A DNA stretch of 64,000 nt from Eubacteriales bacterium. Lineage in GTDB: Bacteria; Bacillota; Clostridia; Oscillospirales; CAG-272. The stretch covers positions 536-64,535 of the forward strand of contig JAZOLL010000030.1 of assembly GCA_045653105.1 (NCBI GenBank), read 5' to 3'. This document shows positions 21,327 to 51,625 of this stretch, one piece after another. Numbering within the stretch: the stretch's first letter is position 1; each line of letters opens with the position of its first letter. A model generated the notes under the pieces. It was not told the origin of the DNA, made no database searches, and was given only the letters and a program-made list of their open reading frames with translations. Made by a program: the position numbers and the translations under genes.

Positions 21327-21355
21327 TTGACACAGTAAAAAAACAGTGTTATAAT
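21327..21355 (+). promoter_or_regulatory. SigA-type promoter of metallophosphoesterase paralog 1
   Basis: TTGACA, 17 nt spacer, TGT-TATAAT. Confidence 0.8.
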
Positions 21356-21396: not shown

Positions 21397-22644
21397 ATGA
21401 AAAGAATTATAGCCACTATATGCATTTTAGCGCTGATTTTATCTGTGGGTGCGATCGGCACGCTCTCCGCGTCAGCCTCAAGCGATTGGTTTGACTATGA
21501 GCTCGGCAAGGATCCCGACTATTCCTTTGCGGTCATCGGAGACATACAGACCCTCGCTTGGTTTGACCAGAGAGAAAGCACAACCTACACCAAAAAGCTC
21601 GTCGATTGGATACTCAACAACAAGGACGATAGAAAGATCGAGTACGTTTTCGGTCTTGGCGACACGATAGAAACTCTCAGCTCATGGGACGAGAGCGGAT
21701 ATAACACAAGCGTAACAAATCCCGGCGAGTGGAGCATCACCTCCACACAGATCAAGCGCATGAACGGCGTTGTGCCCTATATGATAGTCCGTGGAAACCA
21801 CGACGACGAGGCGGGATACCACAAGTACATCTGCACTAACGACTATCAAAGCCAGATGGACGGATTCTTCTACGATCCATCAGAGCCCGCGCTTCACGGC
21901 AACTCAATGTCCAACTCCTACAAAAAGATAACCGCAGGCGGTCAGAAATATCTTATGATGGCGCTTGACTTTGATGTAAATGACGAGGTTATCGACTGGG
22001 CAAACAACGTGATCGAAGCAAATCCAGACCACAGAGTTATCGTTGCGGTACACGCCTATAATAGCGGCGCCTCCGGAGGCTTCCTCAAGACAGAGATCGG
22101 TCAGCCCGGAATCGACGACGAAACAGACGGAGATGAAAACCACGACTGGTTCTATTTTGACGGTGAAAAACTTTGGAGTGAGATATTCTCAAAGCACGAA
22201 AACATGTTTATGGTGCTCTCAGGTCACGTTTCCGTGACAAACCCGGTCGTTAAAGAAAGAAAGGGCGCGGGAGACAACTATGTTTTCGAGGTGCTCGTTG
22301 ATCCCCAAGCTCACGATGAAAATCTGCACGAATACAGCGATGGCGCCGGTGCTTTCGTTATGATGATAAACTTTTCAGTGAATGGAAACAGACTTGAGTT
22401 TGAATATATCTCTACTACAAGAGATAAGCACTATAAGGCCTCTAACCAGTATGTAAAAAAGGTTCATGGCACGTCGCTCCTTGAACTCAAAACCACCACA
22501 ACAACCGAAAATGATGACGATGACGACCGCAAAGACAAAAAGGATGGCGGTTGCTCCTCCTCTCTTACCTCTACTGTCGCCGTAGCGACCACTCTAGGCA
22601 CCGCGCTCTCCGCGTTTGCCCTGAGACGGAAAAAAGAAGATTAA
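21397..22644 (+). CDS. Secreted calcineurin-like metallophosphoesterase, paralog 1, with Thr/Asp linker and Gly-Cys/TM/basic C-terminal signal
   Basis: Signal peptide (ends SASASS). MPE motifs GDIQ, GLGD, RGNHDDE, VHAY, SGHV. C-terminus TTTTTENDDDDDRKDKKDGGCSSSLTSTVAVATTLGTALSAFALRRKKED. Confidence 0.85.
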   Translation: MKRIIATICILALILSVGAIGTLSASASSDWFDYELGKDPDYSFAVIGDIQTLAWFDQRESTTYTKKLVDWILNNKDDRKIEYVFGLGDTIETLSSWDESGYNTSVTNPGEWSITSTQIKRMNGVVPYMIVRGNHDDEAGYHKYICTNDYQSQMDGFFYDPSEPALHGNSMSNSYKKITAGGQKYLMMALDFDVNDEVIDWANNVIEANPDHRVIVAVHAYNSGASGGFLKTEIGQPGIDDETDGDENHDWFYFDGEKLWSEIFSKHENMFMVLSGHVSVTNPVVKERKGAGDNYVFEVLVDPQAHDENLHEYSDGAGAFVMMINFSVNGNRLEFEYISTTRDKHYKASNQYVKKVHGTSLLELKTTTTTENDDDDDRKDKKDGGCSSSLTSTVAVATTLGTALSAFALRRKKED

Positions 22645-22650
22645 ATGATC

Positions 22651-22698
22651 ATCGCGTATGCGAGCTGTTTATCAGGTTCGCATACGCGATGTTTTTTG
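22651..22698 (+). terminator. Rho-independent terminator after paralog 1
   Basis: 13 bp stem ATCGCGTATGCGA / TCGCATACGCGAT followed by GTTTTTT. Confidence 0.85.
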
Positions 22699-22713
22699 CA
22701 ATAAACTTTTTGA

Positions 22714-22742
22714 TTGACAAAAGAAAAATAAAATGGTATAAT
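22714..22742 (+). promoter_or_regulatory. SigA-type promoter of metallophosphoesterase paralog 2
   Basis: TTGACA, 17 nt spacer, TGG-TATAAT. Confidence 0.8.
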
Positions 22743-22787
22743 TTACTTGCCTAATAATATCATTACATTTATTTAAAGGAGTTAGCT

Positions 22788-24158
22788 ATGAAAAAAAGAC
22801 TTGTGGCAATAGTTTGCCTTATCGCGCTCATGCTTTCCATGTCAACCCTCGGCTCTCTCTCTGTTTTTGCAGAAGGTGAAGACGGCGAAGAAAACCCCTG
22901 GCTCGAATTCTATGATCTCTCTGATATTCCCGACTATTCCTTCGCAGTAATCGGCGACATACAGAGCCTTACTTATCTTGATACCGACGCACAGGTAAGA
23001 GCACAGGTTGGTCTTCCTGAAGTAAGAAGCACATCTTACTTGTCTACTCTCTTCGATTGGATCATCGAAAACAAAGATGAGAGAAAGATCGAATACGTAT
23101 TCGGACTTGGAGACAGCGTAGAAACTCTCAGCACATTCCCCAACTCCTCCGAAACAACCGACCCCGATTATCCCTATTATTCAGACATCAGAAACCCCAT
23201 AGAATGGGCTTACGCAGGATCACAGTTTGCACGTCTTGACGGTGTTATTCCCTACTCTGTAGTTCGCGGAAACCACGACGACGAGGCAGGATACCACCAG
23301 TACATCTGCACAGATGATTATAAAAATCAGATGGACGGCTTTTTCTATGACGAAACAAAGCCCGCGCTTGATGGCAACTCTATGTCCAACTCCTACCGCA
23401 AAATAGAGTTTAGTGGACAGAAGTACCTCATGATGACACTTGATTTCGACACTAACGAGGATGTTATCGCTTGGGCAAATAATGTTATTGCGGCAAACCC
23501 CGACTACAGAGTAATCGTTTCTCTCCACGCATATCTTGACAAGGACAAGGGCACAGGTAAGAACTACTTCCTCAAAGAAGAGATTGCTCAGCCCGGCGCT
23601 GACAGCCAGGAAGACAACGATACCAACCACGACTGGTTCGACTTTGACGCAGAGATATTCTGGACAGAGATCTTCTCAAAGCACGAGAATATGTTTATGG
23701 TTCTCTCCGGTCACGTAAGAGAGGTTGAAGACCCGATCATCCGTAACAGAAAAGGTACAAAGGGCAACCACGTATTTGAAGTTCTTGTAAACCCCCAGAC
23801 ATATGACAGAACTCACGGGACAGATGTGACCGACGAAGAAACAGGAGTTACCACTCCCGGTCAGGCCGGTGGATTTGTAATGATCCTCAACTTCTCCCAC
23901 GACGGCAACAAGGTCGAATTTGAGTACATCTCCACAGTAACAGGTAAGCACTTCAAGGCAAAGAACCAGACAGTAAAAACTCTTCCCGGAACAAGTATGA
24001 TGACTCTCAAGACCACAACAACTACAACAACACCTGCATCATCCGATGAAAATAAGGGCGGTTGTAAGGGTGCAGTTCTCTCCACGGCGGCAGTAACCTC
24101 TGTGATCGGAACATCTCTCGCAGCATTTGCTATGAGAAAGAGAAAAGAAAATAACTAA
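22788..24158 (+). CDS. Secreted calcineurin-like metallophosphoesterase, paralog 2, with the same C-terminal signal
   Basis: Same motif set as paralog 1 (GDIQ, GLGD, RGNHDDE, LHAY, SGHV). C-terminus TTTTTTTPASSDENKGGCKGAVLSTAAVTSVIGTSLAAFAMRKRKENN. Confidence 0.85.
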   Translation: MKKRLVAIVCLIALMLSMSTLGSLSVFAEGEDGEENPWLEFYDLSDIPDYSFAVIGDIQSLTYLDTDAQVRAQVGLPEVRSTSYLSTLFDWIIENKDERKIEYVFGLGDSVETLSTFPNSSETTDPDYPYYSDIRNPIEWAYAGSQFARLDGVIPYSVVRGNHDDEAGYHQYICTDDYKNQMDGFFYDETKPALDGNSMSNSYRKIEFSGQKYLMMTLDFDTNEDVIAWANNVIAANPDYRVIVSLHAYLDKDKGTGKNYFLKEEIAQPGADSQEDNDTNHDWFDFDAEIFWTEIFSKHENMFMVLSGHVREVEDPIIRNRKGTKGNHVFEVLVNPQTYDRTHGTDVTDEETGVTTPGQAGGFVMILNFSHDGNKVEFEYISTVTGKHFKAKNQTVKTLPGTSMMTLKTTTTTTTPASSDENKGGCKGAVLSTAAVTSVIGTSLAAFAMRKRKENN

Positions 24159-24172
24159 AACCCGATAAACAA

Positions 24173-24206
24173 GGGGGACTGTTAAAATAACAGTCCCCCG
24201 TTTTCT
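24173..24206. terminator. Bidirectional terminator between paralog 2 and the GT4-CsaB gene
   Basis: GGGGGACTGTT / AACAGTCCCCC stem followed by GTTTTC. The stop codon of the minus-strand gene lies inside the hairpin. Confidence 0.75.
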
Positions 24207-26167
24207 TTGCAAAAAGCGATTATTTTTGGGTCGTCACCCACTCCCACAAACTCACACCCGGCAAGCTTTGAAAAAATAAGCGCGTGAAGTCGCTCGGAAA
24301 TGCAAAGATTTATATTTTTACAAAGGTATATTATCTCTCCTCCACTAAGTCCTGATAGCAGCTCGCACTCACACTCCTCTGAAAGCTTTGATGACTTTTT
24401 TCTATCCTCTTCGGGATACATCTCAAGAATCATCACCTCTCTGCCCTCTCGTTTTCTTCTTTTTATATCCTCGCGTATATGCAAAAGATCCGCCTTACTG
24501 CCGCCACCCGCGACCGAGACCAGCACGAGCGGTCCCTTTTTATCTCTTATGATATCCCTCACACGTGGGCTTTCAGTCGGAGAGGTGAGATACGCAAGAT
24601 CCTCCTCAATAGATAGCTTATCCGGAGGAATCCCGAGTTTTCTCGCGAATTCAAAGGAACGCTTGTCCCGAAGTCCTAGATGCTCCGCCCGTAAAAGCAC
24701 ACGGCGGAGCATCTTTTTGCCTCGCTTACCCTCCACGTCAAGACCACACCCCCAAAGCTCGACCGAAACGCCGAGCTTATAGGCTATTTTAGCGAGAGCA
24801 ATATAATAAAGGAGCGAGCGAGTGCTTGTCCTGTCCTGAAAAAGCGTACCGCCTCCAAATATAAGTCTTTTGGAATGACGTATCTCACGAATGAGAGAAA
24901 AAATATTTTTCCTGTTTACACACCGCACTCCAAAGGCGTATCTGTCTTTTTGGGGACAGCGCGTAAGTGCCGATATTTGCGTTTCTCCCTCTCTTCTGCA
25001 TCTGCTTATCGCGGCAGAGAGTAGAGTGTCATCACCTACGTTTCCAAACCCATAATAGCCGCAAATACAACTTTCTCCCCCTCTGAAGCTCAATGAATTT
25101 ATAGCGTGCTCGTAAAACTCAAGTGTTTTTCCGGCAGAGCCTATCGCCGAATGATATTTTATTATATATTCTCTTATGCTTTCGGTATTATTTTCCGCGC
25201 CGAGAAGTTGGGATACCGCTTCAAAAAGCTTGTCCTCGTTTATAGAACTACCCGACCTACCGCAAAAATTATCTTTTTCCGCATCTGAAATATTATCCGG
25301 AGTGACAATTCCGAAAAATCCCTCATTCCCCGCAATGACCGTAGGTATGCCACAGGACATAGCCTCAAGCGCGGCACGTGAAACTCCCACAAAAGCATCA
25401 GAGCCTTTTAGTTCCTCGCTCACGTCTTCAAGTCTGCCTACCGTCTCTATACACTCGTACCCTATCCTATGATTCATATGCGCAGCAAGACGAGTAATGG
25501 AGGCATATTCGCTTCCCCCTCCCACTATCCTTATCTTTAATTTCCCGTGTCGAGAGATAAGACGATCGGCTATCCTGCAAAGAGAGTAAGCCGCCGCAGA
25601 GGAATCCGCATCAAGGCGACTCACAAAGCATATCCGTCTCTCATCTCCTCCCACTCTGCCCTCCTTGGGCGCAAGGCGCTCGGTATCAACACCGTTCGGT
25701 ATAATACGTATCCGCTCTGGCAGAACTCCGTACTCCTTAGTTAGATATTTTGCGAGATCCTCACTAACCGCGCTTACTAAATACCCCCAACGCGACATAT
25801 ACTTTTTTATCGGAGATGTTGAAAATTTCGCGTGAACCGAGGTAACAAACGGAACACCCAGTCCCCTTGATGCCATATCCGCTATATATGCTGCTCTGCG
25901 AGAGTGAGCATGTATTATGTCAAACTTTTCTCTCTTTATAATCCTTCTGAGTTTAGAATAGCATCTTGCCGCACCCAAGCTCTCACGAAACAAAAAATTT
26001 ATCTTTATATGACGTATCCCCTCGGAGGCTACCCTTTCGCTTATCTCCCCACCCGAGGATACGACGGTGACATCCGCGCCGCACACCATCAGTCCTCTCG
26101 CAAGCTCGAACACATGTGTCTCCGCACCACCTATACCAAGTGAATCAATAAGCAAAAGCACCTTCAT
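24182..26167 (-). CDS. Fusion protein: N-terminal GT4 glycosyltransferase plus C-terminal CsaB-type polysaccharide pyruvyl transferase
   Basis: The N-terminus MKVLLLIDSLGIGGAETHV is GT4-like. From about aa 365, ICGYYGFGNVGDDTLLSAAI and a C-terminal ERLHALIF...GVGDDPKI block are typical of CsaB/PS_pyruv_trans. It is a single uninterrupted 661-codon ORF. Confidence 0.8.
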   Translation of the reverse strand: MKVLLLIDSLGIGGAETHVFELARGLMVCGADVTVVSSGGEISERVASEGIRHIKINFLFRESLGAARCYSKLRRIIKREKFDIIHAHSRRAAYIADMASRGLGVPFVTSVHAKFSTSPIKKYMSRWGYLVSAVSEDLAKYLTKEYGVLPERIRIIPNGVDTERLAPKEGRVGGDERRICFVSRLDADSSAAAYSLCRIADRLISRHGKLKIRIVGGGSEYASITRLAAHMNHRIGYECIETVGRLEDVSEELKGSDAFVGVSRAALEAMSCGIPTVIAGNEGFFGIVTPDNISDAEKDNFCGRSGSSINEDKLFEAVSQLLGAENNTESIREYIIKYHSAIGSAGKTLEFYEHAINSLSFRGGESCICGYYGFGNVGDDTLLSAAISRCRREGETQISALTRCPQKDRYAFGVRCVNRKNIFSLIREIRHSKRLIFGGGTLFQDRTSTRSLLYYIALAKIAYKLGVSVELWGCGLDVEGKRGKKMLRRVLLRAEHLGLRDKRSFEFARKLGIPPDKLSIEEDLAYLTSPTESPRVRDIIRDKKGPLVLVSVAGGGSKADLLHIREDIKRRKREGREVMILEMYPEEDRKKSSKLSEECECELLSGLSGGEIIYLCKNINLCISERLHALIFSKLAGCEFVGVGDDPKIIAFCKENGGLLF

Positions 26168-26691
26168 TTTCTCTCCCCCAGTATTTTTCCTTTAAAGCGA
26201 ATTATCTTTATCTCGCACTCCTCGCCAAAAAGCTCGCCTCGAATCGCAATCGGCACCCCTCCGTCAACCAATAGCAAAAACTCCTCACCCGTGACGCGTC
26301 TAACGGTCATTTTTTCGGATTCTTCACCGTGCTTTTCGCTCTCCTTTATCACACTGTCATACTCAAAGAACTTTTCTACCGCAAGCATTTCCAAAAAGAT
26401 ATCCCTCTCGATATAAACTCCCTCGAAGCGGGCACTGACTATACCCCCCTCTCGCTTTATCTCAAGCCCCGCAATGCTCTGCGGCTCACAAAAGCGGATA
26501 CTCACATCATTGCCTTTCAACTCGCTCTTATGTACTATCCCTCTTATTGTCCTGCCGTTTTTCTCAAAGCTTATCTCACACACTATATCTCCCGAAATGT
26601 AGCTAAAATCCCGCACTTTTGCCGTGCACCCAGAAAAGCAAAATAAAATCATCAAAATAAAAGCTAAAAGTGATATACAATATCTCTTCAT
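26164..26691 (-). CDS. Hypothetical lipoprotein, translationally coupled to the GT4-CsaB gene
   Basis: Start ATG 26691 after AAGGGGG. Lipobox FSGC. ATGA overlap with the downstream gene. I recognise no family. Confidence 0.7.
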   Translation of the reverse strand: MKRYCISLLAFILMILFCFSGCTAKVRDFSYISGDIVCEISFEKNGRTIRGIVHKSELKGNDVSIRFCEPQSIAGLEIKREGGIVSARFEGVYIERDIFLEMLAVEKFFEYDSVIKESEKHGEESEKMTVRRVTGEEFLLLVDGGVPIAIRGELFGEECEIKIIRFKGKILGERK

Positions 26692-26816
26692 ATTATTCCC
26701 CCTTTTCAAAAACAGAATATGAAAAACATTATTATTTAATACGTAAATAAGCCTTGAAAAGAGGTGGTTTATGTGTTAAAATATATCTATTAGGTTAGAA
26801 AGGTGTAATGTCTATT

Positions 26817-28031
26817 ATGCGTAAAAAATACCATCTTTATTCCTCTATGCCCATGTTGGGGAATCATAAAGCATACGCTGAAATAGATTCCTCGGCGTTG
26901 AAGCATAACTATAAAACTATGCTCGACCATATACATAAAGAAAGCCCGAACACAACTGCCATCTGCGTCCTCAAGGCAGACGCTTACGGTCACGGTGCAA
27001 AGAACTGTTGCCGCGCCTTGCTTGAAGAAGGTTGTCGCCACTTTGCCGTATCCTCAATCGAGGAAGCTATCGATATAAAAAGCGTGTGCGACGAGATGAG
27101 GATTCGTGCCGACGTGCTTATCCTCGGCTATACCCTCCCCTCACAGGCATCTCTGCTTGCAAAGTACGACATCATCACATCGATCGTCGATGCCGACTAC
27201 GCCAAGGAGCTCTCGCGTGAGGCTCGTGCGGCGGGTGTTACGGTCAGATGTCACGTAAAGCTTGATACGGGAATGAACCGCATCGGCTTTTCCGCAAAGT
27301 CCGACGAGGAGATAGAAAGCGCAGCAAAGGCTATCGCCGAAATATTCGAGTATCCCAAGCTCAAGATATGCGGAATGTTCACCCACTTCGCAAAGGCTGA
27401 CGAGGCTCTTGAGCCCGACAGCACTGACGAGATGACAAAGCTCCAGTTCGAGAGATTCAAAAAAGTGGATGAGGCGCTTCTCACACTCGGTGTTGACGTA
27501 AAATTCAGACACGTGTGCAATAGCGCGGCGGCTATGAGATTCCCCGAATATCACCTTGACGCCTGCCGTCTCGGGATTACTCTCTACGGAACTCACTCAT
27601 CGAGATACGTCGATCGCTACGCGCTTTTACCCGTAATGAAGCTCTGCACGGTAATATCTCATATACACACCCTCTCCGCGGGAGAATCGGTCAGCTACGG
27701 CGGAACGTATACCGCAGAGGACGACCGCTTGATCGCAACGCTTCCTATCGGCTATGCTGACGGATTTGTCAGAGCCTACAGCGGCGCGATAGTTACAGTA
27801 CTCACAGACGACGGCCCGAGGAAAGCGCCTATCCGCGGTAGGATCTGTATGGACCAGTGTATGATAGACGTGAGCGGAACCTCCGCAAAGGTGGGAGACA
27901 AGGTCATCCTTTTCGGTAACACTCCCGCAGAACTCACAGAGCTTGCGAAGATGGCAAACACGATAGAATACGAATCCCTCTGTCTCGTCACCTCAAGAGT
28001 GCCGAGAATCGAGATAGATTCGAAAACGTAA
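26817..28031 (+). CDS. alr: Alanine racemase
   Basis: AYAEIDSSALKHNY start region, PLP-Lys motif VLKADAYGHGA, and C-terminal MDQCMIDV block. Start is at 26817 (11 nt after AGAAAGGTG) or at 26808. Confidence 0.9.
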   Translation: MRKKYHLYSSMPMLGNHKAYAEIDSSALKHNYKTMLDHIHKESPNTTAICVLKADAYGHGAKNCCRALLEEGCRHFAVSSIEEAIDIKSVCDEMRIRADVLILGYTLPSQASLLAKYDIITSIVDADYAKELSREARAAGVTVRCHVKLDTGMNRIGFSAKSDEEIESAAKAIAEIFEYPKLKICGMFTHFAKADEALEPDSTDEMTKLQFERFKKVDEALLTLGVDVKFRHVCNSAAAMRFPEYHLDACRLGITLYGTHSSRYVDRYALLPVMKLCTVISHIHTLSAGESVSYGGTYTAEDDRLIATLPIGYADGFVRAYSGAIVTVLTDDGPRKAPIRGRICMDQCMIDVSGTSAKVGDKVILFGNTPAELTELAKMANTIEYESLCLVTSRVPRIEIDSKT

Positions 28032-28033
28032 AT

Positions 28034-28075
28034 AAAAAAAGACAGAGAATTTTCATTCTCTGTCTTTTGTTTTTA
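28034..28075. terminator. Bidirectional terminator between alr and paralog 3
   Basis: AGACAGAGAAT / ATTCTCTGTCT stem flanked by an A-run and TTTTGTTTTT. Confidence 0.85.
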
Positions 28076-28084
28076 TATTTTATA

Positions 28085-29362
28085 TCAGTCGTTTTCCTTG
28101 CGTCTCATTGCGAATACCGCAAGAGAAGTACCTACCCAACAAGCTATTGCCGTGGTGGATATAGCCGCCTTACAACCCTTCTTAGATCCATCTTCTACTG
28201 TAGTTGTAGTAGTGGTTGTCGTAGTTGTGGTTGAAGTATCAACGGGAGGAATAAATGTGGGAAGTGTTCCTTCATCGAGCTCCATAACTCTCTGATTTCC
28301 CGCGCCATAAAACTTGCCATAAGCAGTTGAATAGTACTCTATCTCAAGCTTTTCTCCACCGTTTGTAAAGTTGAGCATCAGTACAAAGGCGCCGGCCTTA
28401 CCGGGAGTGATAGCTCCTGTTTCTTCATCAACCACATCTTTTCCGTGATCCCAGTCGTAAGCCTGAGGGTCAACGAGTATCTCTATTACCTCATTTCCGT
28501 TAACACCAGTTCTTGTGCTTACAACGGGGCTGTTTACAGAAACGTGTCCGCTAAGTACCATAAACATATTCTCGTGCTTTCTGAATATACTTGTCCAGAG
28601 CTTCATTCCGTTGAAAGGAATTTCTTCAAGCACTGTATTATCTACGTTAGAGGAACCGATGTCACCTGCAAAGGTCTGTCCGGTGCTGCTAAGATATGCG
28701 TGGACAGAAACTATAACCTTGTGGTCAGGATGAGCCTCTATCACCTGGTTTGCCCAAGCAATAGCAGCCTGGTCTGCGTTATAGTCAAGACCAAGCATAA
28801 GGTACTTGTGGTTGCCTATCTCTATCTTGCGATAAGAGTTAGACATTGAGTTGCCCAATGTGAGAGGTCTGTTGGGATCATATCCGAATCCGTCCATCTG
28901 TGCCTGATACTTCTCGTTGCAGATGTACTTGTGATATCCACCCTCATCATCGTGGTTTCCACGTACTACCATATAAGGAATGATCACGTTGCCTGCTTTA
29001 TCGTGAAGACGACGGAACTGTGTGCGCGCGATTACCCACTCAAGCGGGTTTCTGTTCTTGTTGGGATATGTGGTGAGTGTCTCAACAGTATCTCCAAGAC
29101 CAAAGATATATTCTATCTTTCGCTCATCTTTGTTGTCAAGTATCCAGTCAAACATATCCTCAAGATATGTTGTCCTGTTGTGCGAGTCAAAATACGTAAT
29201 ACTCTGTATGTCGCCGAGAACGGCAAACGAATAGTCGAGATTTTCGGGCATATCCTTATCTACCCATATACTAGCTTCAGCCGCACTGTGAAGCGCGCCC
29301 ATAGTAGTCATTGAAACGAGCATAGCAACAAGGCATATTGCCGCGATAATTCTTTTTTTCAT
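28085..29362 (-). CDS. Secreted calcineurin-like metallophosphoesterase, paralog 3, with the same C-terminal signal
   Basis: GDIQ, GLGD, RGNHDDE, VHAY and SGHV motifs. C-terminus TSTTTTTTTTTTTVEDGSKKGCKAAISTTAIACWVGTSLAVFAMRRKEND. Confidence 0.85.
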   Translation of the reverse strand: MKKRIIAAICLVAMLVSMTTMGALHSAAEASIWVDKDMPENLDYSFAVLGDIQSITYFDSHNRTTYLEDMFDWILDNKDERKIEYIFGLGDTVETLTTYPNKNRNPLEWVIARTQFRRLHDKAGNVIIPYMVVRGNHDDEGGYHKYICNEKYQAQMDGFGYDPNRPLTLGNSMSNSYRKIEIGNHKYLMLGLDYNADQAAIAWANQVIEAHPDHKVIVSVHAYLSSTGQTFAGDIGSSNVDNTVLEEIPFNGMKLWTSIFRKHENMFMVLSGHVSVNSPVVSTRTGVNGNEVIEILVDPQAYDWDHGKDVVDEETGAITPGKAGAFVLMLNFTNGGEKLEIEYYSTAYGKFYGAGNQRVMELDEGTLPTFIPPVDTSTTTTTTTTTTTVEDGSKKGCKAAISTTAIACWVGTSLAVFAMRRKEND

Positions 29363-38920: not shown

Positions 38921-39490
38921 TTATTTTGCAGCCTTGAGAGATGCAAAAACAGTGTCAACGACATCGTCCGCATCTACCGACTCGGTAACTGTTACAGTAT
39001 AGGTGCGATCGCCTATAGTAGTGACATACTGAGTCTGATTCATAACCGCAGAAGTGCTGGTCAGTGTAGTCTTAAAAGAAAATACTCTGACCGAAAGTCC
39101 GTTAGTCTTCTTGTTAGCGGCAGTGACGTTGGATATAGACATGCCGAGTGAAGCATACGCCTCGTTCATTGCCTCCTCAAACTCATCCGCAGAGAGTGTG
39201 TCATACACGGTGGTCTTTGCCTCGTAAACAACGTTTATGTTGTTTGTGGAGTCAGTATCCTTAAACATAACTATGCTTCCGTCCTGCTTTGTCCAGTCCT
39301 CGGGATAAGCAAAGGATATCTTACCATCGGAGTAAACTTTGTAGCCGTCCGGGAGAGATGTGGTAGTTGTTGTTTTCTTGGAATCGTCATCATCCTTCTT
39401 CGAGCCATCATCAGTATCGCAAGCGACAAAGAGAGTAGCCATTGAGAGAATAAGGATCAAGCATACAAAAATCGATAAAAATCTTTTCAT
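38921..39490 (-). CDS. Hypothetical secreted lipoprotein (possibly PsbP/DcrB-like fold)
   Basis: Lipobox FVAC, D/K/T-rich linker, and an FAYPEDW motif resembling DUF1795/PsbP-like proteins. It has its own promoter. Confidence 0.7.
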   Translation of the reverse strand: MKRFLSIFVCLILILSMATLFVACDTDDGSKKDDDDSKKTTTTTSLPDGYKVYSDGKISFAYPEDWTKQDGSIVMFKDTDSTNNINVVYEAKTTVYDTLSADEFEEAMNEAYASLGMSISNVTAANKKTNGLSVRVFSFKTTLTSTSAVMNQTQYVTTIGDRTYTVTVTESVDADDVVDTVFASLKAAK

Positions 39491-39571: not shown

Positions 39572-40120
39572 CTATATATTTTCAGTGAACCTTGAGTGCT
39601 CTTTTCCTAAAATTCTCGAGAGGGGATATATCAAAAGAATGCCGAAAATAAGGTTTCCAATACCCTGATAAATATCCGCCGTAATAAAGCCAACGCTCCA
39701 CCACATTTTGAGAAACGCAGGGTCCGAGCTGATAAATATCGCCTGTACGGGAAGATAGAGCACTCCAAACAAAAAGCCGTGAAGTGAGCATATCGCCACA
39801 TGGAAAACAAGCTTTGCCTTTTTGCCGAGATTTTGAGGCACAAGCATCGTAGCGCCCCAAAGGATCGTCCAGATATAAAGATATCCGATCCACCAAGGGC
39901 CAAATCCCGCAAAAAGCCCGTTTAAAAAAGCGTAAATGTATATCGGGATCAGCGCATACCACCTGTAAACTATCGTGTAAACCACCACGAGCGCGCCAAC
40001 CATGTGAACGTTTGGCAAAAACTCCATCATAATGTCGGATATGTACATTATCGCTCCGAGCATCGTGCAGACCAAAAGCATTATAAGGCGCAAAAGCGAG
40101 CGTCTTCTATGTACTGACAT
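39572..40120 (-). CDS. Small polytopic membrane protein, ECF-transporter S-component-like (candidate corrinoid or precursor transporter)
   Basis: 182 aa with about 6 TM segments, 4 nt downstream of the DUF4430 gene and under the cobalamin riboswitch. The family call is tentative. Confidence 0.6.
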   Translation of the reverse strand: MSVHRRRSLLRLIMLLVCTMLGAIMYISDIMMEFLPNVHMVGALVVVYTIVYRWYALIPIYIYAFLNGLFAGFGPWWIGYLYIWTILWGATMLVPQNLGKKAKLVFHVAICSLHGFLFGVLYLPVQAIFISSDPAFLKMWWSVGFITADIYQGIGNLIFGILLIYPLSRILGKEHSRFTENI

Positions 40121-40124
40121 ATTA

Positions 40125-40577
40125 TTACTCAGCCTTAAAAGCGTACACCTTACCCACCTCTATCTCGGTGGAGTCCACTCCCTTTGGGGCATATTCGCCG
40201 TCAACGTAAAAAGCCCAGTATTTGCCGTCGGTATCGTAGTCGAGTCTCTCGCCGTCAACGACCTTTACGTAAAGACCGAACGCGCCGTCCTCACCCGAGA
40301 TAAGTTCCGCGTCCTGCAAAGCCTCGCCTACTACCGTCTTGTTTGTCTTGACGGTATAGATCTTTTCCTCACCCGACCTTGTTATCACCTTGAATGTGAA
40401 CTGTGTATTACCCTCACCGCGAACATTTGAACCATCGGGATCTCCCAATGTCGTGATCTCGGGGCTTTGCGGTTCGTTTTCATTTTTGTCACAGCCAACA
40501 ACTGAAAGTGCTATCGCCGCAGAAAGCACGAGCAGAAGAAGAAGTGACAAGATTTTCATCGTTCTTGTTTTTTTCAT
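40125..40577 (-). CDS. DUF4430-domain lipoprotein (transcobalamin-like beta domain)
   Basis: Lipobox VVGC. C-terminal KYWAFYVDGEYAPKGVDSTEIEVGKVYAFKA resembles the DUF4430 W-x-Y-x-V-N-G ... GD motif. RBS AAGGAG upstream. Confidence 0.75.
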   Translation of the reverse strand: MKKTRTMKILSLLLLLVLSAAIALSVVGCDKNENEPQSPEITTLGDPDGSNVRGEGNTQFTFKVITRSGEEKIYTVKTNKTVVGEALQDAELISGEDGAFGLYVKVVDGERLDYDTDGKYWAFYVDGEYAPKGVDSTEIEVGKVYAFKAE

Positions 40578-42975: not shown

Positions 42976-44631
42976 TTACTGATTTGTGTACACGAAGCTG
43001 ACTATCTGCTTTATGCCCGCGATCTCTGTCTCAAGATAATTTACCGTGAGCTGATCGCCGACAGATACGAGAACCATCTGCTCGTTTGCCGCAACGCTCT
43101 GCTTATATACGACACCTGTCGCGTCGGTGATATATACCCAGGAGTTTCCGTCAATAACGAAGGTGTTTATAGCGGCAACCGTGATCTCTGCGGTCTCATA
43201 TTCATCGGACTCGTCTGCGGGCTTGTCAGGGATATTTTCAATGATTCCGTTCTCACGGAGAAGCTTCAGATATGCCTCCTTAGCCTCCGTCTGGTTGTTG
43301 CCCGTAGCCACGATGCTATAATTTTCAACGTTTACGAGCGCGCAAAGCTTGACGATTCCGCCGCTATCCTTGAGCACCATGATATAGGTAGCTTCACCCG
43401 ATACGTTGATGAGCGACGGGAAGGAAGCGGTGTATCCCTTTTCCTGGACCTCACCCTGCGCCGCCTGCATAGCGGAATACTCCTCAGCACCGATTACGGG
43501 ATAGAACTTGTATTCACCCGTTCTCGCGTTACTGATAATAAATCCGATATTACTCTCGTCAGCGGTTATAGAGGTAACGCCCGTGAAGTACCAAACGTCA
43601 TCGCCGCGAACGATATAACCGAAGTCATCTGTTGTGACCTTGCAGTCCTTATTTCCTATGATACTGTTCCAGTATCCGTTCTTGTACATACCGTACCAGT
43701 TGTACTTCTCTGTCGCGAGATATCCGTTGAACACGTTGTCGACCCAAGAGGGTGTGCTGTCAACAGAGTAGAGCTCGGACGAGCCGTCAACAGGGTTAAA
43801 TATTATGACCTCATTTACGTCCATAGCACCGAAAAGTCCGATCTTCGGCATCATACAGGACACGATATAGTAGGGGTTTCCCGCATCGTCTATCTCAAAG
43901 GTTATCTCGTCGAATATCTTTGTGGGATAGTCAAAGCGGAGCTTTCGGAGCAGATTGTCGCCAAAGTACGCGCTCTTTACGTACTTCATAGGCTTCTCAA
44001 ACTTGACGTATTCAGCGTCGCTGTTTACAGGATCTACCTTGATATATCCGGGAACACCGGACGCTCTGTTATTTATCCACTTAAAGAAGTCGGCATACTC
44101 AAGGTTTGTCACCTTTGCGGGTACACCCTTGTAGTTTATCTGTGAGTAATAATCGCCTGCCTGATACTGTGACACAACATCAGAGAGCGCGCCGAGAGTT
44201 CTGTTACCGATTATGGTTGCGGAGCTTGAGTCCATAAGCGCGATGTTGGTGACTGTATCCGTTTCGGGCATATCCTCCTCAAACACAGCCTCGGGAACCT
44301 CAATAATGTTTGAGTAAGCGTGCGCGTTGAAAAGAGTTGAGGATGCGAGCGAGCCGATTATAAGAACCGCTATCGGAATAGCCGCAACTATTATAAATGC
44401 CTTGGCATTTCTAAAAAATCCTCTGTCTATTTTTCCTGCCCTAACTCCGCCTACAGCCCCCTTGAGGCCAAAAAGCGCGTAAGCACCGCCCCAAACGAAT
44501 ATCATCGAGAGCACAAAAGTCCAAAATCCCTTGGAATATACGTTGAGTGCGGGAAGTGAAAAATAAAATGTTGCAAGCGCTATCACAAGCGTCGCAACAG
44601 ACGCAAGGACTATTCTTGTTGTTTTTTTCAT
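42976..44631 (-). CDS. Hypothetical membrane protein with large extracytoplasmic domain
   Basis: Three N-terminal TM segments, then about 450 aa of Y/W/N/G-rich soluble domain. I recognise no family. Good coding statistics, and 11 nt upstream of deoC. Confidence 0.7.
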   Translation of the reverse strand: MKKTTRIVLASVATLVIALATFYFSLPALNVYSKGFWTFVLSMIFVWGGAYALFGLKGAVGGVRAGKIDRGFFRNAKAFIIVAAIPIAVLIIGSLASSTLFNAHAYSNIIEVPEAVFEEDMPETDTVTNIALMDSSSATIIGNRTLGALSDVVSQYQAGDYYSQINYKGVPAKVTNLEYADFFKWINNRASGVPGYIKVDPVNSDAEYVKFEKPMKYVKSAYFGDNLLRKLRFDYPTKIFDEITFEIDDAGNPYYIVSCMMPKIGLFGAMDVNEVIIFNPVDGSSELYSVDSTPSWVDNVFNGYLATEKYNWYGMYKNGYWNSIIGNKDCKVTTDDFGYIVRGDDVWYFTGVTSITADESNIGFIISNARTGEYKFYPVIGAEEYSAMQAAQGEVQEKGYTASFPSLINVSGEATYIMVLKDSGGIVKLCALVNVENYSIVATGNNQTEAKEAYLKLLRENGIIENIPDKPADESDEYETAEITVAAINTFVIDGNSWVYITDATGVVYKQSVAANEQMVLVSVGDQLTVNYLETEIAGIKQIVSFVYTNQ

Positions 44632-44652
44632 GATCTTTCTCCCTTTAGTTAG

Positions 44653-46773
44653 TTATGTATTTGCGGGCGCGTCGTTAAAATCGAAGACGCATCTTCCGTC
44701 TTCGAGCTTAAGGGCGGCATCAAAGCTCGTACCCTTTTTCGAAACGAAGCCCTTTATTTTAGCGGTATGGCCCTCACTCAGCAAAAGCTTTGCGTTTGCC
44801 ACAGAGACCGCTCTTTTACAGATATAAGCATTTATCGAGAACTTACAGCCGCTCTTATACGCGCTGCATCCGTAGGAATATCTCGTTCTGACCACGTCAG
44901 CTCCGCAAAGCGGACACTTGCCCACCACGTCACCGAAAAATCCCGTATCGGTATCCTCGTCGGGTGCTACCGAGCGCACCTCAAAGCACCTAGCTATCTC
45001 GACCTTTGCAAGATCCACCGCATCTCCTATCGCACTCTCTCCGCGGTAGACTTTTTTGAGAGCCTTGCCCATCTCAGAGGTCTTGAACTTGTCCATCACG
45101 ATCTGCATCCTCTCGAGAGATTCTATTAAAAACTCTCCGTCGGGGAGTATCGTGTAAACGTCCTTTTTGAGATTTATATAGTTGCTCTTTCTGGCGTTAT
45201 CGATAATTCCCGTTCTCGTCGCCTCGGTGCCGAGCTCGACACCCTCGAACATCGCGCGGTATTCCGCCGCGTCGTCAGCGCCGACGCTGTCGTCTATCGC
45301 TGCCTTTTCGTCTCTGAACGGATTTTTCAGATAGTTATTCAGCGTTTCTATCGTGTAGTGCTTTGGCGGTGTGGTCTCCTTTTCCGTCGGCTTGAAAAGA
45401 ATGTTGACCTTATCCCCCTTTGCAAGCTGCGGGAGTATCTTGTCCTTTTGCGTGCTGTCATCATATTTTGTCCAGCCGCGCTCAAGTATAGTCAGTCCCT
45501 TGAGGGTAAAGTCCTCAAGCTCGCCCACACTCACCGTCATCTCAACTCGCCTTGCCACACAGTCCTCCGCACAAAAGACCGCAACAAAGCGTCTGATAAC
45601 GGTGGAATACACCTGCATCTGCTTCTCTGTGAGCCTGTTCTTGTCGGGTATCTTGTAGGTCGGGGTGATAGCCGAGTGCGACTCTATCTTTGAGTCGTCG
45701 AATATCGTCTTTTTATCCTTAAAGACCACGGGATATCCCATATTCTTGCATATCCCGATTATCTTCTTTATCTTGTCCTTTTCCGCCGTGGCGAGATACT
45801 CCGAGTTTGTTCGGGGATAGGTCAGATATCCCTCCTCATAAAGCTTCTGGATTATCTCAAGGCTCTCTGCCATCGACATCTTGTATTTCTTTCCGAGCAC
45901 GTTCTGAAGTTTGGAGAGCGAATAGAGCTTGCCGGGGGATATAACGTCCTTTTTGCTCTTTACGTCCTTGACGTAAGCCTGGCACGCGTTATACTCCGCG
46001 CAGGTCTTTTGCGCCTTTGAAAGCTCGTTTGCGGAAAACTTTTGCTTTGAATTAAGCTCTACCTTGTAGCCATTCGTCATCTCCGCGCTGCCGATAGAAT
46101 AATATTTCTCAGGTACAAAATTCCTTATCGCCATATCTCTGTCGTATATCGCCTTGACGATAGGCACGATAACTCTTCCCACTCTGAGAAGCGTTCCCGT
46201 CTTGAGGGTGGCAAATCTCGTAAGATTCACCCCGTAAAGCCAGTCTATATATGTCCTCGCAAATCCCTCGTTTGCGAGATTGTCATACTCTCTGTCCTCC
46301 TTCATGTCAAGGAGTGCCGCCGCCACCGTTTGCGGTGTCTGGTCGGGAAGCCAGAGCCTTTTTATCGTTTTTTCGGAATGAAGCGCGTTGGCGATACATA
46401 GACGGACTATGATCTCTCCCTCTCTGTCAGCATCCCCCGCGTTTACTATCGTATCAACGTCCTCGCGGTTACAAAGGGTTTCAAGCGTTTTGAACTGCTT
46501 GTATACTCCGCTGTCCACACCCTTTGAGGAGTCGCGTCTGAGCTCAAACTTGAACTCTTCGGGAAAGCAAGGAAGATCCTCCATAGACCACCTCACCCTC
46601 TCTCGCTTTACCGCACTGTACGCCTCTACATCGGCAAGAGAAAAAAGGTGACCGAACGCCCAGGAAATTATATAGCCCGAGCCCTCAAGATAGCCATCAC
46701 GACGAGTCATCGGTCCGATTCCTGCCGCAATGTTTCTGCCAAGGCTTGGCTTTTCCGCTATTATAAGAATCAT
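44653..46773 (-). CDS. topB: DNA topoisomerase III
   Basis: Start ATG 46773 after GGAGG (MILIIAEKPS, TOPRIM). Catalytic region GYLTYPRTNSEY. C-terminal Cys4 zinc ribbons (CPLCG...CSAYKSGC). Confidence 0.92.
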   Translation of the reverse strand: MILIIAEKPSLGRNIAAGIGPMTRRDGYLEGSGYIISWAFGHLFSLADVEAYSAVKRERVRWSMEDLPCFPEEFKFELRRDSSKGVDSGVYKQFKTLETLCNREDVDTIVNAGDADREGEIIVRLCIANALHSEKTIKRLWLPDQTPQTVAAALLDMKEDREYDNLANEGFARTYIDWLYGVNLTRFATLKTGTLLRVGRVIVPIVKAIYDRDMAIRNFVPEKYYSIGSAEMTNGYKVELNSKQKFSANELSKAQKTCAEYNACQAYVKDVKSKKDVISPGKLYSLSKLQNVLGKKYKMSMAESLEIIQKLYEEGYLTYPRTNSEYLATAEKDKIKKIIGICKNMGYPVVFKDKKTIFDDSKIESHSAITPTYKIPDKNRLTEKQMQVYSTVIRRFVAVFCAEDCVARRVEMTVSVGELEDFTLKGLTILERGWTKYDDSTQKDKILPQLAKGDKVNILFKPTEKETTPPKHYTIETLNNYLKNPFRDEKAAIDDSVGADDAAEYRAMFEGVELGTEATRTGIIDNARKSNYINLKKDVYTILPDGEFLIESLERMQIVMDKFKTSEMGKALKKVYRGESAIGDAVDLAKVEIARCFEVRSVAPDEDTDTGFFGDVVGKCPLCGADVVRTRYSYGCSAYKSGCKFSINAYICKRAVSVANAKLLLSEGHTAKIKGFVSKKGTSFDAALKLEDGRCVFDFNDAPANT

Positions 46774-46853
46774 TTTTCCTCCTGTCAAATAAAATAAGCA
46801 AAATAAAATTAAACGGGCAGCTTCCAAAGAAACTGCCCGTTAGTTATTTTAGA

Positions 46854-47261
46854 TCAAAGATATTTCTTTACTGTGTCTGACGCTTTCTCTGTGGGCATAG
46901 AAGCGGTTGTCACTATGTTTACACCGATCTTTTCGGAGATGCTTGCAACCTCGTCAAGGAACTTGTCGAACTCAGCGTAGTTATCATTGCAGATCTTGAG
47001 AGAAGAATCTATAAAGAGATCTGTAACGTCGTGATTGCTCGCAAGGATTCCTGCTACGAAGCCGTAGAGGGACTGTGCGTCGTCAACAAAATATTCATTT
47101 GTATCGATGAGTCTTGCTGTGTACTTTATGTCGTAACGAAGCTTAACTCCCTTTTCTATACAAACAACATCGCCCTGAGACTTCTCAGACGCCTCGTTTA
47201 CGAGAGCGATGAGTGCTTTGGTTTTACCTGTTCCTTTAACACCGATAATTACTTTTAACAT
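46854..47261 (-). CDS. Small P-loop NTPase of unknown function (135 aa)
   Basis: Walker A GVKGTGKT at residues 7-14. Candidate Walker B hhhhD (DLFID). RBS GGAGG upstream. No other domain. Confidence 0.7.
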   Translation of the reverse strand: MLKVIIGVKGTGKTKALIALVNEASEKSQGDVVCIEKGVKLRYDIKYTARLIDTNEYFVDDAQSLYGFVAGILASNHDVTDLFIDSSLKICNDNYAEFDKFLDEVASISEKIGVNIVTTASMPTEKASDTVKKYL

Positions 47262-47369
47262 TCGGAACCTCCAACAATATTTTTAGAACAAATAATATGT
47301 TCATTTCCATTATAACCTATATGGAAACTTTTTTCAATAGTAAATTTTACTTTTTTCAAATTATTTTTA

Positions 47370-48710
47370 TCAGCCGAGTCTTGCCTCAAGCTCTGCCTTC
47401 TGATCCTCATATCCGGGCTTACCGAGGAGAGCGAACATATTCTTCTTATAACCCTCAACACCGGGCTGATTGAAGGGATTTACACCGAGAACATATCCGG
47501 AAACACCGCAAGCGAACTCGAAGAAGTAGAGGAGATATCCAAGGCAGTACTCGTCACGTCTGTCTATCTCAAGGAGAAGGTTGGGCGTGCCGCCGTCGAT
47601 GTGCGCGAGGATAGTTCCCTTCATCGCGGTCTTGTTTACCTCATCAAGCTCAACACCGGAGAGGAAGTTGAGTCCGTCAACGTTTGCCTCGTCATAGGGG
47701 ATCGGGAACTTGCTCTCGTTTGCCTTTACGGATATAACTGTCTCAAAGAGATTTCTTGTTCCGTCCTGAATGAACTGACCGAGGGAGTGGAGGTCTGTGG
47801 AGAAGATAACCGAAGCTGTAAAGATTCCCTTCTTATCCTTACCCTCACTCTCACCGTAGAGCTGCTTCCACCACTCGTTGAGCATTGCGGAATAGGGCTC
47901 GTAACCAACGAGGATCTCTGTGCCCTTGCCTGCTCTGTACATAAGGTTTCTGTATGCAACGTATCTCATACAGTCGCTCTCTTCGATCTTATCTGTTGCC
48001 TTGTAAGCCGCAGCCGCGTCAGATGCGCCCTTCATAAGCTGGTCTATGTCTATTCCGGCAACCGCGATAGGAAGGAGTCCTACTGCAGTGAGAACCGAGA
48101 AACGTCCGCCAACGTTGTCCGGAACGACGAATGTCTCATAGCCCGCGTCGTCGGAGAACTTCTTGAGAGTGCCTCTTGCCTTGTCAGTGGTAACGAAGAT
48201 TCTCTCCCTTGCACCCTCAACTCCGTATTTCTCCTCAAGGAGAGCTCTGAATACTCTGAACGCGATAGCGGGCTCTGTTGTAGTACCCGACTTGGAAATA
48301 ACGTTGATACAAACGTCACGTCCCTCGCATATCTGCTGAAGCTCGTTAAGATAGCTGGGGCTTATGTTACAACCCGCGAAATAGATGTCGGGTGTATCCT
48401 TCTTGAGATTATTGTACATAGGGGACTTGAGGAACTCAACGACCGCGCGAGCTCCGAGATAGGATCCGCCTATACCGATAACTATAAATACGTCGCAGCT
48501 CTTTTTAACCTTTTCTGCCGCAACCTTTATTCTGGCAAATTCTTCTTTGTCGTAATTGTTCGGGAGATCGACCCAACCCAAAAAATCACTACCCTCACCG
48601 CTACCCTCAAGGAGAGTCTTGTGAGCCTTTGAAACCTCATTCTGAATAGCAGAAAGCTCTGCTTCGGATACGAACTGCTTAATGTACTTGTCGTTAAGTG
48701 TCAATGCCAT
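47370..48710 (-). CDS. pgi: Glucose-6-phosphate isomerase
   Basis: 446 aa Gram-positive-type PGI ([31 protein letters not shown]). Confidence 0.95.
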
Positions 48711-48840
48711 TTTTTCTACCGCCTTTTTGTTTTATTACTCTCACGCCTAAAATTTGCGAGCGAGCATTCGATCTAATTTGATTATACACTATGCTCTGTT
48801 AAAAATCAAGAGCCGCAAAAGATTTTCTATCGTTTTTATA

Positions 48841-50004: not shown

Positions 50005-50079
50005 AATTCATCACCTCGACACATTATATGAAAAAAGCGAGCAAAATATAACGCCCGACCGCGTGGGTCGGGCGTTAAG

Positions 50080-50640
50080 TCACACAAATATTTTTTGGTA
50101 TTGCTTACCCTTCAGCGCGCAGTCGAGCGTCGGTGTGAGCAGGGTAAAATCCGCGATAAGTGAGTGCGGCTTGCGCTCGGGATCGTCCTGAAACAGCGGC
50201 ACGAAATAGACGAACTTGCGTGAGAGCAAAGTTGCTATATTTTTCAGATTTGCCGAGAGCGCGTCGTTTGAGGCAAGCGCGATGACCAACGGACGGTTTC
50301 CGCGAAGATGCGCCTTTGCCGCCATACAGACTGCGGTGTCTGTTATTCCCGCCGCCATCTTTGCCAGAGTATTTCCCGTGCAGGGCGCAATGATAAGTGC
50401 CTCAAGCTCGATCTTAGGACCGAGCGGCTCGGCATCAACTATGCTGTGAACGACTCGCCGACCGCACAAAAGCTCAAGCTTTTGGCAAAGATCAGTCGCT
50501 CTTCCGAATCTCGTGTCGGTGCTATATACGTTCTCACTCACTATCGGGAGTATCTGGTGCCCTGACCTGAGCAGCTTTTCAAGCTCTGATAGTGATGCCG
50601 CGTGAGTACAGTAAGAGCCACAAAACGCATATCCTATCAT
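50080..50640 (-). CDS. dpaB: Dipicolinate synthase subunit B
   Basis: Start ATG 50640 (MIGYAFCGSYCTH) with ATGA overlap onto dpaA. Flavoprotein-like SpoVFB family. Confidence 0.88.
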   Translation of the reverse strand: MIGYAFCGSYCTHAASLSELEKLLRSGHQILPIVSENVYSTDTRFGRATDLCQKLELLCGRRVVHSIVDAEPLGPKIELEALIIAPCTGNTLAKMAAGITDTAVCMAAKAHLRGNRPLVIALASNDALSANLKNIATLLSRKFVYFVPLFQDDPERKPHSLIADFTLLTPTLDCALKGKQYQKIFV

Positions 50641-51530: not shown

Positions 51531-51625
51531 ATAAGGTATCCTTCCTTTACTAAGAGGGAGTCCTTTGCGGACTCCCCCACACAATACCATAATATGAATA
51601 GCTCTATGCTTTTGACAAATGCTCT

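Follow-up and report, generated by a model that had tools for sequence, protein, structure and literature searches.

A cysteine-containing C-terminal tail on secreted metallophosphoesterases and unrelated proteins of gut Clostridia: a candidate portable sorting or anchoring signal

The C-terminal sorting signals MYXO-CTERM, JDVT-CTERM, Synerg-CTERM, and CGP-CTERM have an invariant cysteine in common and have been assigned to CPBP proteases termed “myxosortases” (Haft preprint, 10.1101/2023.06.07.544157). For the first of these, cleavage of the Cys-containing MYXO-CTERM protein TraA by the myxosortase MrtX (a CPBP protein) was shown in 2025 to be Cys dependent; Lgt is named as the leading candidate for the enzyme that lipidates the Cys (PMC11980579). 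Neither paper mentions a class from Firmicutes or Clostridia, and no link between myxosortases and Bacillota was found in the literature searched. Here, we analyzed a stretch of 64,000 nucleotides (nt) from an uncultured member of the Clostridia (contig JAZOLL010000030.1; the whole stretch is referred to as the window), which encodes three paralogous secreted metallophosphoesterases that end in a Gly-Cys motif, a transmembrane (TM) helix, and a basic cluster. Sequence comparisons provide good support for this tail being a portable tripartite sorting or anchoring signal that is absent from the catalogues searched, and the best reading places it among the Cys-containing tripartite signals of the MYXO-CTERM type, as a new form from monoderm bacteria.

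Three phosphoesterase paralogs and their tails

The three genes are located at 21397..22644 on the + strand (paralog 1; 415 amino acids [aa]; Pfam Metallophos E=9e-7), 22788..24158 on the + strand (paralog 2; 456 aa; E=9e-6), and 28085..29362 on the - strand (paralog 3; 425 aa; E=3e-8), and their products share 52-59% pairwise identity. Open reading frames (ORFs), Pfam matches, and translation confirmed the architecture described in the original prediction: in each protein an N-terminal hydrophobic, signal-peptide-like segment is followed by a globular domain with the phosphoesterase core, a Thr-run linker, and the tail of Gly-Cys, helix, and basic end. By translation and alignment, the tail of paralog 1 (22549..22644, + strand) comprises G385-C386 (Cys codon 22552-22554), a hydrophobic helix, RRKKED, and the stop; re-translated, it reads GCSSSLTSTVAVATTLGTALSAFALRRKKED, then stop. 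The translated tail of paralog 2 (24060..24158, + strand) comprises G425-C426 (Cys codon 24063-24065), the helix, RKRKENN, and the stop (GCKGAVLSTAAVTSVIGTSLAAFAMRKRKENN, then stop), and that of paralog 3 (28085..28177, - strand) comprises G396-C397 (Cys codon 28172-28174), the helix, RRKEND, and the stop (GCKAAISTTAIACWVGTSLAVFAMRRKEND, then stop). Such a tail was not found on any further ORF of the 64-kb window. The signal peptides of the three paralogs were without a lipobox (L-[ASTVI]-[GAS]-C), and the proteins are in this respect not classical lipoproteins. In an AlphaFold (AF2) model of paralog 3 (mean pLDDT of 85), residues 30-377 were globular, residues 378-406 (linker and Cys motif) were disordered, and residues 407-424 formed a terminal helix.

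The passenger of these tails is a calcineurin-like metallophosphoesterase. All three paralogs passed the Pfam Metallophos model (PF00149) with 26.6-34.6 bits against a gathering threshold of 21.5, and the top Foldseek matches were purple acid phosphatase and Mre11 (probability of 1.0, TM-scores of 0.4-0.56), that is, the generic metallophosphoesterase fold; a PDB sequence search with the phosphoesterase family profile gave no match. Motif I was G-D-I-Q in all three (e.g., residues 48-51 of paralog 1) and invariant in 26 family members, with the Gln replacing the usual metal-binding His of D-x-H. One branch of the phosphoesterases is without the tail (P0055, P0057, P0058, P0061, P0073, P0076, P0080, P0083, and P0084): there, the linker and tail are replaced by a C-terminal domain of ~150 aa, often ending in KDPF(G/E)KDPF.

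Across 50 orthologs, the mean pairwise identity was 51% for the catalytic core, 29% for the linker, and 58% for the tail, which bears out the earlier observation of stronger conservation in the tail than in the linker. Within the window trio, the values were 53-61%, 17-43%, and 43-47%, respectively. The tail is conserved to roughly the same degree as the catalytic core and, within the trio, to no greater degree. The original prediction had read the difference between tail and linker as a sign of recognition by a processing enzyme; the comparison is correct, but as an argument it is weak alone, since the paralogs share ancestry and the tail is conserved only about as well as the core. Of the Gly-Cys pair that had been called invariant, the Cys was indeed so (50/50 orthologs), but the residue before it was G in 35/50 and S, R, K, N, or T in the remainder. 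Conserved tail residues were encoded by differing codons across the three window genes, which argues for purifying selection on the peptide rather than recent gene conversion.

The helix has a conservation pattern of its own. The previously noted G-T-[AS]-L-A-x-F-A-[LM] stands for the phosphoesterase subfamily, in which G-T-x-L-x-x-F-A-M-R was nearly invariant (G411 in 49/50, L414 in 49/50, and A418 in 50/50), but in the searches run here the version G-T-x-L-x-x-F-A-M-R-K-R-K-E-D was restricted to this subfamily. By these searches, the G-T-x-L-x-x-F-A-M helix motif is subfamily specific and outside the general signal. Additional cysteines were also observed inside the subfamily helix (C408 in 41/50 and C407 in 21/50, in the numbering of P0001); among the window paralogs, only paralog 3 has an intrahelix Cys.

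The tail on unrelated proteins and in existing model collections

The decisive evidence for a general signal is the modularity of the tail, not its conservation relative to the linker. A 33-position profile built from 25 tails was searched exhaustively (hmmsearch) against 1.84e9 representative proteins, giving 53 matches at E<=1e-3. About 45 of these were single matches whose final aligned residue was the last residue of the protein; the others were internal repeats. By Pfam, the passengers included CBM9_1 (P0145 and P0156), GLUG plus FIVAR (P0146), a prepilin-type N-methyl (pilin-like) protein (P0147), endonuclease I (Endonuclease_1; P0152), Big_2 plus a hyaluronate-lyase N-domain (HL_N-beta; P0160), and F5/8 type C (P0161), while several tail-bearing passengers had no Pfam match. 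Long tail-bearing proteins had N-terminal signal peptides. Among 29 representatives of this general class, the signature was E-K-K-G-C-G-S-S-[ILV], followed by the helix and usually by the end RKKKE[DN]: the Cys and the Gly before it were found in 29/29, G at +1 in 23/29, S at +2 in 25/29, and [ILV] at +4 in 29/29. The distance from the Cys to the C terminus was 27-29 residues in 27/29 representatives and 27-30 residues overall. Haft-type CTERM signals have a tripartite layout, and the tail shares it: a short signature is followed by the TM helix, and basic residues cluster at the extreme C terminus. As is generic for CTERM classes, the tail is carried by several unrelated passengers with signal peptides (including Big_3 and Metallophos). 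Taking the subfamily versions together, the elements of the signal would be [E/K]-K-x-G-C-[G/S/K]-[S/G/A]-[S/A]-[I/L/V], a TM helix, and a cytoplasmic [R/K]3-4-E-[D/N] end.

An independent DNA pattern (G-C-G-S-x-[ILVFM], 19 free codons, [KR][KR]-K-E-[DEN], and a stop) was run over a metagenome collection and gave 21 sites. Eighteen of them terminated long ORFs and had a hydrophobic helix in the unconstrained stretch; the other 3/21 were chance matches, about the number expected from the information content of the pattern. The original prediction had proposed scanning for the tail on unrelated passengers, and the protein profile and DNA pattern together recovered many. A word-indexed search of a 42-column tail alignment against 5.8e9 sequences returned just four short fragments, which had the KKGCGS...RKKKED form; matches were few because a signal of 33 residues cannot reach significance within long proteins at that database size. 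When species-representative genomes were scanned with the phosphoesterase-family alignment, 14 loci were obtained, one of them with the tail (L014), which makes such genomes a poor place to look for tails.

The phosphoesterases themselves suggest that the tail is an exchangeable anchoring module: most orthologs keep it, but P0015, P0019-22, P0030, and P0037 have a plain TM+KKKK anchor without Cys, and further orthologs have a different C-terminal domain in its place. Distant relatives combining LamG and Metallophos (~30% identity) end in a looser tail, GGC[GNS][SA][ST][LIV]...KKKE[DN]. Tail genes are often found in tandem (L022, L026, L031, L045, and L046), and the window has three copies. That the tail is instead a family-specific C terminus, kept by shared ancestry of the paralogs and without general signal function, is highly improbable. 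The confinement of one helix version to the phosphoesterase subfamily and the conservation of the trio tail at no more than the level of the core would fit such an explanation; it is contradicted by the occurrence of the same signature, spacing, and end on at least 8 unrelated domain architectures as well as on passenger-less mini-proteins.

Two of the mini-proteins, P0114 (75 aa) and P0142 (69 aa; L025:323-532), consist of an N-terminal lipobox signal peptide (..LTAC.. and ..FTSC.., respectively), a short Pro/Thr linker, and the tail; processing of both ends, if it occurs, would yield a short peptide with a lipid at each terminus. At L023:5785-7246 (a Logan contig), the tail is out of frame with a 429-aa beta-helix-like passenger, of which an intact 486-aa version exists (P0138); the most likely cause of the frame break is a frameshift introduced during assembly, within the Pro/Thr/Glu/Lys-rich linker.

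Existing models did not account for the signature. The three full proteins and 22 isolated tails were compared by hmmscan (E<=10) with NCBIfam release 20, including the TIGRFAM sorting domains, and in this set none of the sorting-domain models reached its cutoff with an alignment that included the signature motif. The caveat attached to the original prediction, that the tail might be Firmicu-CTERM, does not apply: that model gave no match in the same scan. Weak matches to LPXTG_anchor, Rumino_NPXTG, Loki-CTERM, PGF-CTERM, and PEP-CTERM aligned to the helix and basic part alone; the sole scores at or above cutoff (PEP_CTERM, 16.8 and 16.3 versus 16; LPXTG_anchor, 19 versus 15.9) came from alignments that excluded the motif positions. 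The closest match in layout was MYXO-CTERM (TIGR03382, GC_trans_RRR), which aligned from the G-C onward in 1/25 tails with 14.4 bits against a cutoff of 15.85 and did not match the three window tails. The best score for Synerg-CTERM was 12 against a cutoff of 22.5. No [LN]PxTG was found upstream of the helix, where the sequence is K-K-G-C-G-S-S, unlike that of LPXTG sortase substrates, and Pfam detected no anchor domain on ten tail-bearing proteins. The modular tail, the fixed spacing from Cys to end, and the lack of a model match through the motif all support the predicted non-LPXTG C-terminal sorting or anchoring signal.

An Lgt-CPBP gene pair and the possible fate of the tail

The neighborhoods looked up for tail-bearing phosphoesterases and other tail proteins contained no processing enzyme. 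Two short metagenome contigs (L029 and L042), however, carry an Lgt gene (Pfam LGT, 1e-38) immediately downstream of a tail gene, and a CPBP gene begins after it. With the Lgt of a tail-adjacent contig as the query, four homologs (67, 61, 53, and 51% identity) were looked up, and in 4/4 the Lgt gene was followed by a PF02517 Rce1-like gene, overlapping in 3 and starting 29 nt later in 1. The pair was present in 5/5 Clostridia lineages sampled (L047:5988-7533, L051:10001-11526, L055:6605-8228, L056:10001-11621, and L029:194-1320), overlapping in all but L051, where the genes are 29 nt apart. It had two flanking contexts, tsaE-tsaB-rpiB-Big_3-Lgt-CPBP and Aminotran_4 / Lgt-CPBP-PBP5-PGI. In two lineages, the Big_3 gene directly upstream of Lgt encodes a product with a typical tail, ending ..GGCGSFIGAGAIAVIACATAAGVVICKKKDN or ..GGCKSAIGAGAAIAIVSVIGAGVVLGKKKEN. 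We found no description of this gene pairing in the literature searched.

The Lgt-linked CPBPs were mutually orthologous (33-60% identity) and Rce1-like, with a PF02517 match and the motifs EExxxR (FEEVAFRG; FEExAFRG), FxxxH (FGLFHL), and HxxxN (HAIYNF). They fell below the thresholds of all NCBIfam models: the best was ABC_perm_CPBP (39.5 bits versus 435), and Mrt_core (NF040914; cutoff of 100) gave 30.8 and 17.5 bits, which places them outside the myxosortase core, with MrtJ (29.6 versus 75), MrtS (22.4 versus 130), MrtP, and MrtC likewise subthreshold. NCBI names them “CPBP family intramembrane metalloprotease,” and no PDB sequence match was found for the CPBP. The paired Lgts scored under the equivalog cutoffs. 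All close Lgt homologs with a readable motif (119/119; P0162-P0281, L047:5988-6755) had GRxGC[LF]MxGCC[HY]G, equivalent to N146C/E151C relative to Escherichia coli Lgt, in which N146 and E151 are reported to be important. We considered these substitutions as a specialization for the tail and rejected this, as Lgts of the N146C/E151C type were already listed in 2026 as “more distantly related,” with uncertain activity (PMC13251419), and the substitutions are common to 119/119 close homologs. Also rejected was a three-gene operon of tail gene, Lgt, and CPBP, given the terminator between the tail gene and Lgt.

A pathway of three steps can be proposed. The first can be read from the sequence: the signal peptide drives Sec export, and the tail helix stops transfer in such a way that the basic end stays in the cytoplasm and the Cys comes to lie at the outer membrane face. 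The other two steps are proposed by analogy and from this one conserved gene neighborhood. The invariant Cys would be lipidated on its thiol, the likeliest case being the addition of diacylglycerol by an Lgt-type transferase, and an Rce1-like CPBP glutamic intramembrane protease might then cut distal to the modified Cys, removing the helix and basic end. The enzyme would then be held at the surface through a lipid at its C terminus, on a stalk that is flexible, Thr-rich, and probably glycosylated. That the tails are subfamily versions of a portable signal of uncultured spore-forming gut Clostridia, Cys-lipidated by an Lgt-type enzyme and CPBP-trimmed, is a proposal to which we give an even chance. 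Its most specific form is a “C-terminal lipoprotein” pathway of monoderm Clostridia, in which the N146C/E151C Lgt would lipidate the Cys before the TM helix and the new CPBP subfamily encoded in the same bicistron would remove the helix; this we advance tentatively, leaning slightly against it.

Several observations weigh against lipidation by the paired Lgt and trimming by its CPBP partner. Positions -3/-2 of the tail hold Lys-Lys where a lipobox has Leu-Ala/Ser, and compared with known Lgt substrates the membrane topology is reversed. In L047, a strong terminator hairpin separates the Big_3 tail gene from Lgt. The adjacency of tail gene, Lgt, and CPBP is limited to one syntenic clade and so amounts to one evolutionary event, and in L055 and L056 no tail gene was found within 10 kb of the pair. 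The window is syntenic with these two loci (PBP5, PGI, a 135-aa ORF, topoisomerase, and a 551-aa ORF in common order at 42976-51590 of the window, L055:6605-15318, and L056:10001-18702; 60-78% identity, with PGI of L055/L056 76-78% identical to window PGI), yet upstream of PBP5 it has dpaA/dpaB where L055 and L056 have Lgt-CPBP, and it is without the pair. Lgt is, moreover, a housekeeping gene, and LnsB, which is CPBP-like in fold, is needed for lipoprotein N-acylation in Staphylococcus aureus (PMC7387801). The last points, together with the single syntenic event, the intervening terminator, and the 2/5 lineages in which the pair is without a nearby tail gene, would suit a true sorting signal served by other machinery (a sortase-like transpeptidase, a rhomboid, or another lipid or cell-wall attachment), with Lgt-CPBP acting in LnsB-like maturation of N-terminal lipoproteins and adjoining tail genes by chance. 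We consider this improbable: LnsB is without the CPBP catalytic motifs (PMC7387801), whereas the Lgt-linked CPBPs keep EExxxR, FxxxH, and HxxxN; a CPBP serves every Cys-containing tripartite signal with a known or predicted protease; and the tail has no LPXTG-like T-G site, the LPXTG-type models matching the helix and basic part alone.

The strong conservation of the helix in the phosphoesterase subfamily also weighs against trimming, being unexpected for a segment that is merely discarded, and may mean that the helix is retained and interacts. This bears on the main rival, an unprocessed C-terminal stop-transfer anchor whose Gly-Cys would serve S-acylation without cleavage, a disulfide with a partner, or metal or redox chemistry. 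In sister orthologs, the anchoring is done by a plain TM+KKKK segment without Cys, and, as the original prediction had correctly stated for sortase-, exosortase-, rhombosortase-, and CPBP-like genes, the window is without a processing-enzyme gene: no CPBP, rhomboid, sortase, exosortase, or Lgt gene is encoded in its 64 kb. A plain anchor nonetheless seems unlikely to us, because a seven-residue signature with invariant G-C is maintained at a fixed distance from the C terminus across unrelated passengers whose helices are otherwise unconserved, because the tail has the layout of processed signals, and because a tail gene adjoins Lgt-CPBP in one clade.

Locus, host, and comparison with described systems

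Each paralog is an independent transcription unit, having its own promoter and its own terminator. Near-perfect sigma-70-type promoters with an extended -10 TG precede paralog 1 (sigma-70-like, 12/12, 21327-21355), paralog 2 (12/12, 22714-22742), and paralog 3 (11/12, 29436-29408), and strong terminator hairpins follow at 22650-22691 (17 bp), 24173-24199, and 28068-28037, respectively. The locus is syntenic with L015 in the pur operon, the three paralogs, alr, a small lipoprotein, a fusion of a GT4 glycosyltransferase to a polysaccharide pyruvyl transferase (CsaB-like), and CBAH. Relative to L015 (8471-12568), purL was 94% and alr 84% identical, in contrast to 57% for the GT4-pyruvyltransferase and 43-54% for the phosphoesterase paralogs, which had no one-to-one orthology; the surface-related genes of this locus have thus diverged or been turned over much faster than the flanking housekeeping genes. 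The fusion (Pfam; 24182..26167, - strand) adjoins the paralogs in both loci as a conserved neighbor outside the signal itself and may point to a connection with a pyruvylated cell-wall glycopolymer or with the glycosylation of Thr-rich stalks. Among multi-TM ORFs of the window, Pfam identified transporters, SdpI, HAAS, and ComEC only. A 182-aa four-TM protein without a Pfam match is encoded at 39572-40120 (- strand), between genes for small lipobox lipoproteins (38921-39490 and 40125-40577).

The relatives are metagenome-assembled genomes of uncultured Clostridia, Oscillospiraceae, and Acutalibacteraceae from ruminant guts. The window encodes dipicolinate synthase DpaA/DpaB, which points to a spore-forming and presumably monoderm host. 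It would thus differ from the diderm hosts of MYXO-CTERM with their type II secretion system (T2SS), although no genome-wide search for secretins was made.

The usual explanations for surface display in gut Clostridia are sortase, SLH or CWB2 domains, and N-terminal lipoproteins. Cys-containing tripartite signals have so far been described for Myxococcota, Synergistota, some Proteobacteria, and Thermococci, and the tail would extend the principle to Gram-positive gut Clostridia. Current annotation misses this clean motif, the proteins being named “metallophosphoesterase” or “hypothetical”; its recognition would make it easier to predict which proteins, glycan-binding proteins and nucleases among them, Oscillospirales of ruminant and human guts display on their surface. 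If the proposed pathway is true, surface enzymes and binding proteins by the dozen would be lipid-anchored at the C terminus, and the Lgt-CPBP pair would reveal, for the first time from genomic data, the long-sought lipidating enzyme for all Cys-containing C-terminal sorting signals, MYXO-CTERM included. The tail, Lgt, and CPBP would form a compact three-component system that is testable heterologously and could settle whether Lgt acts on an inverted C-terminal substrate.

Among the known systems, MYXO-CTERM/MrtX of Myxococcota is like the tail in its Gly-Cys, TM helix, and basic extreme C terminus, in its Sec-exported proteins, and in its many unrelated passengers; it is also like what we propose for the tail in its CPBP/Rce1-type protease and in the prior lipidation of the Cys that has been proposed for it. 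The two differ in signature (KKGCGSS[ILV] versus GCGC-like) and in the basic end (Lys-rich ...KKKED versus Arg-rich). In addition, the tail belongs to a presumably monoderm, spore-forming clostridial host with no outer membrane or T2SS step, and an Lgt gene forms a physical pair with its candidate CPBP gene. In Synerg-CTERM/MrtS, JDVT-CTERM/MrtJ, and CGP-CTERM/MrtA, the signature likewise has an invariant Cys and is served by a CPBP protease of its own (a candidate one in the present case), and JDVT-CTERM, like the tail in one clade, has the substrate gene adjoining the enzyme gene; these systems are found in Synergistota, Proteobacteria, and Thermococci, and all of their models scored below cutoff here. 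LPXTG/sortase A and the Ruminococcus NPXTG signal (NF033846) share with the tail the Gram-positive surface anchoring and the order of motif, helix, and basic end, but in the tail a Cys takes the key place that the scissile Thr-Gly bond has in those signals, and no sortase gene lies nearby. The N-terminal lipoprotein pathway (lipobox, Lgt, and Lsp) resembles it in the Gly-Cys followed by G-S-S, as in the mature N terminus of many Gram-positive lipoproteins, in the position of the Cys at the outer membrane face beside a helix, and in the Lgt gene that adjoins tail genes; in the tail, by contrast, the signal is C-terminal, the helix follows the Cys, and trimming is proposed to be by CPBP rather than Lsp. 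Finally, CAAX processing in eukaryotes and archaea (a prenyltransferase, then Rce1/MmRce1) follows the order proposed here, a lipid on the Cys thiol first and then a CPBP cut distal to the Cys, whereas in the tail the Cys is 27-30 rather than 4 residues from the end, the modification would be extracytoplasmic, and the candidate enzyme is Lgt instead of a prenyltransferase.

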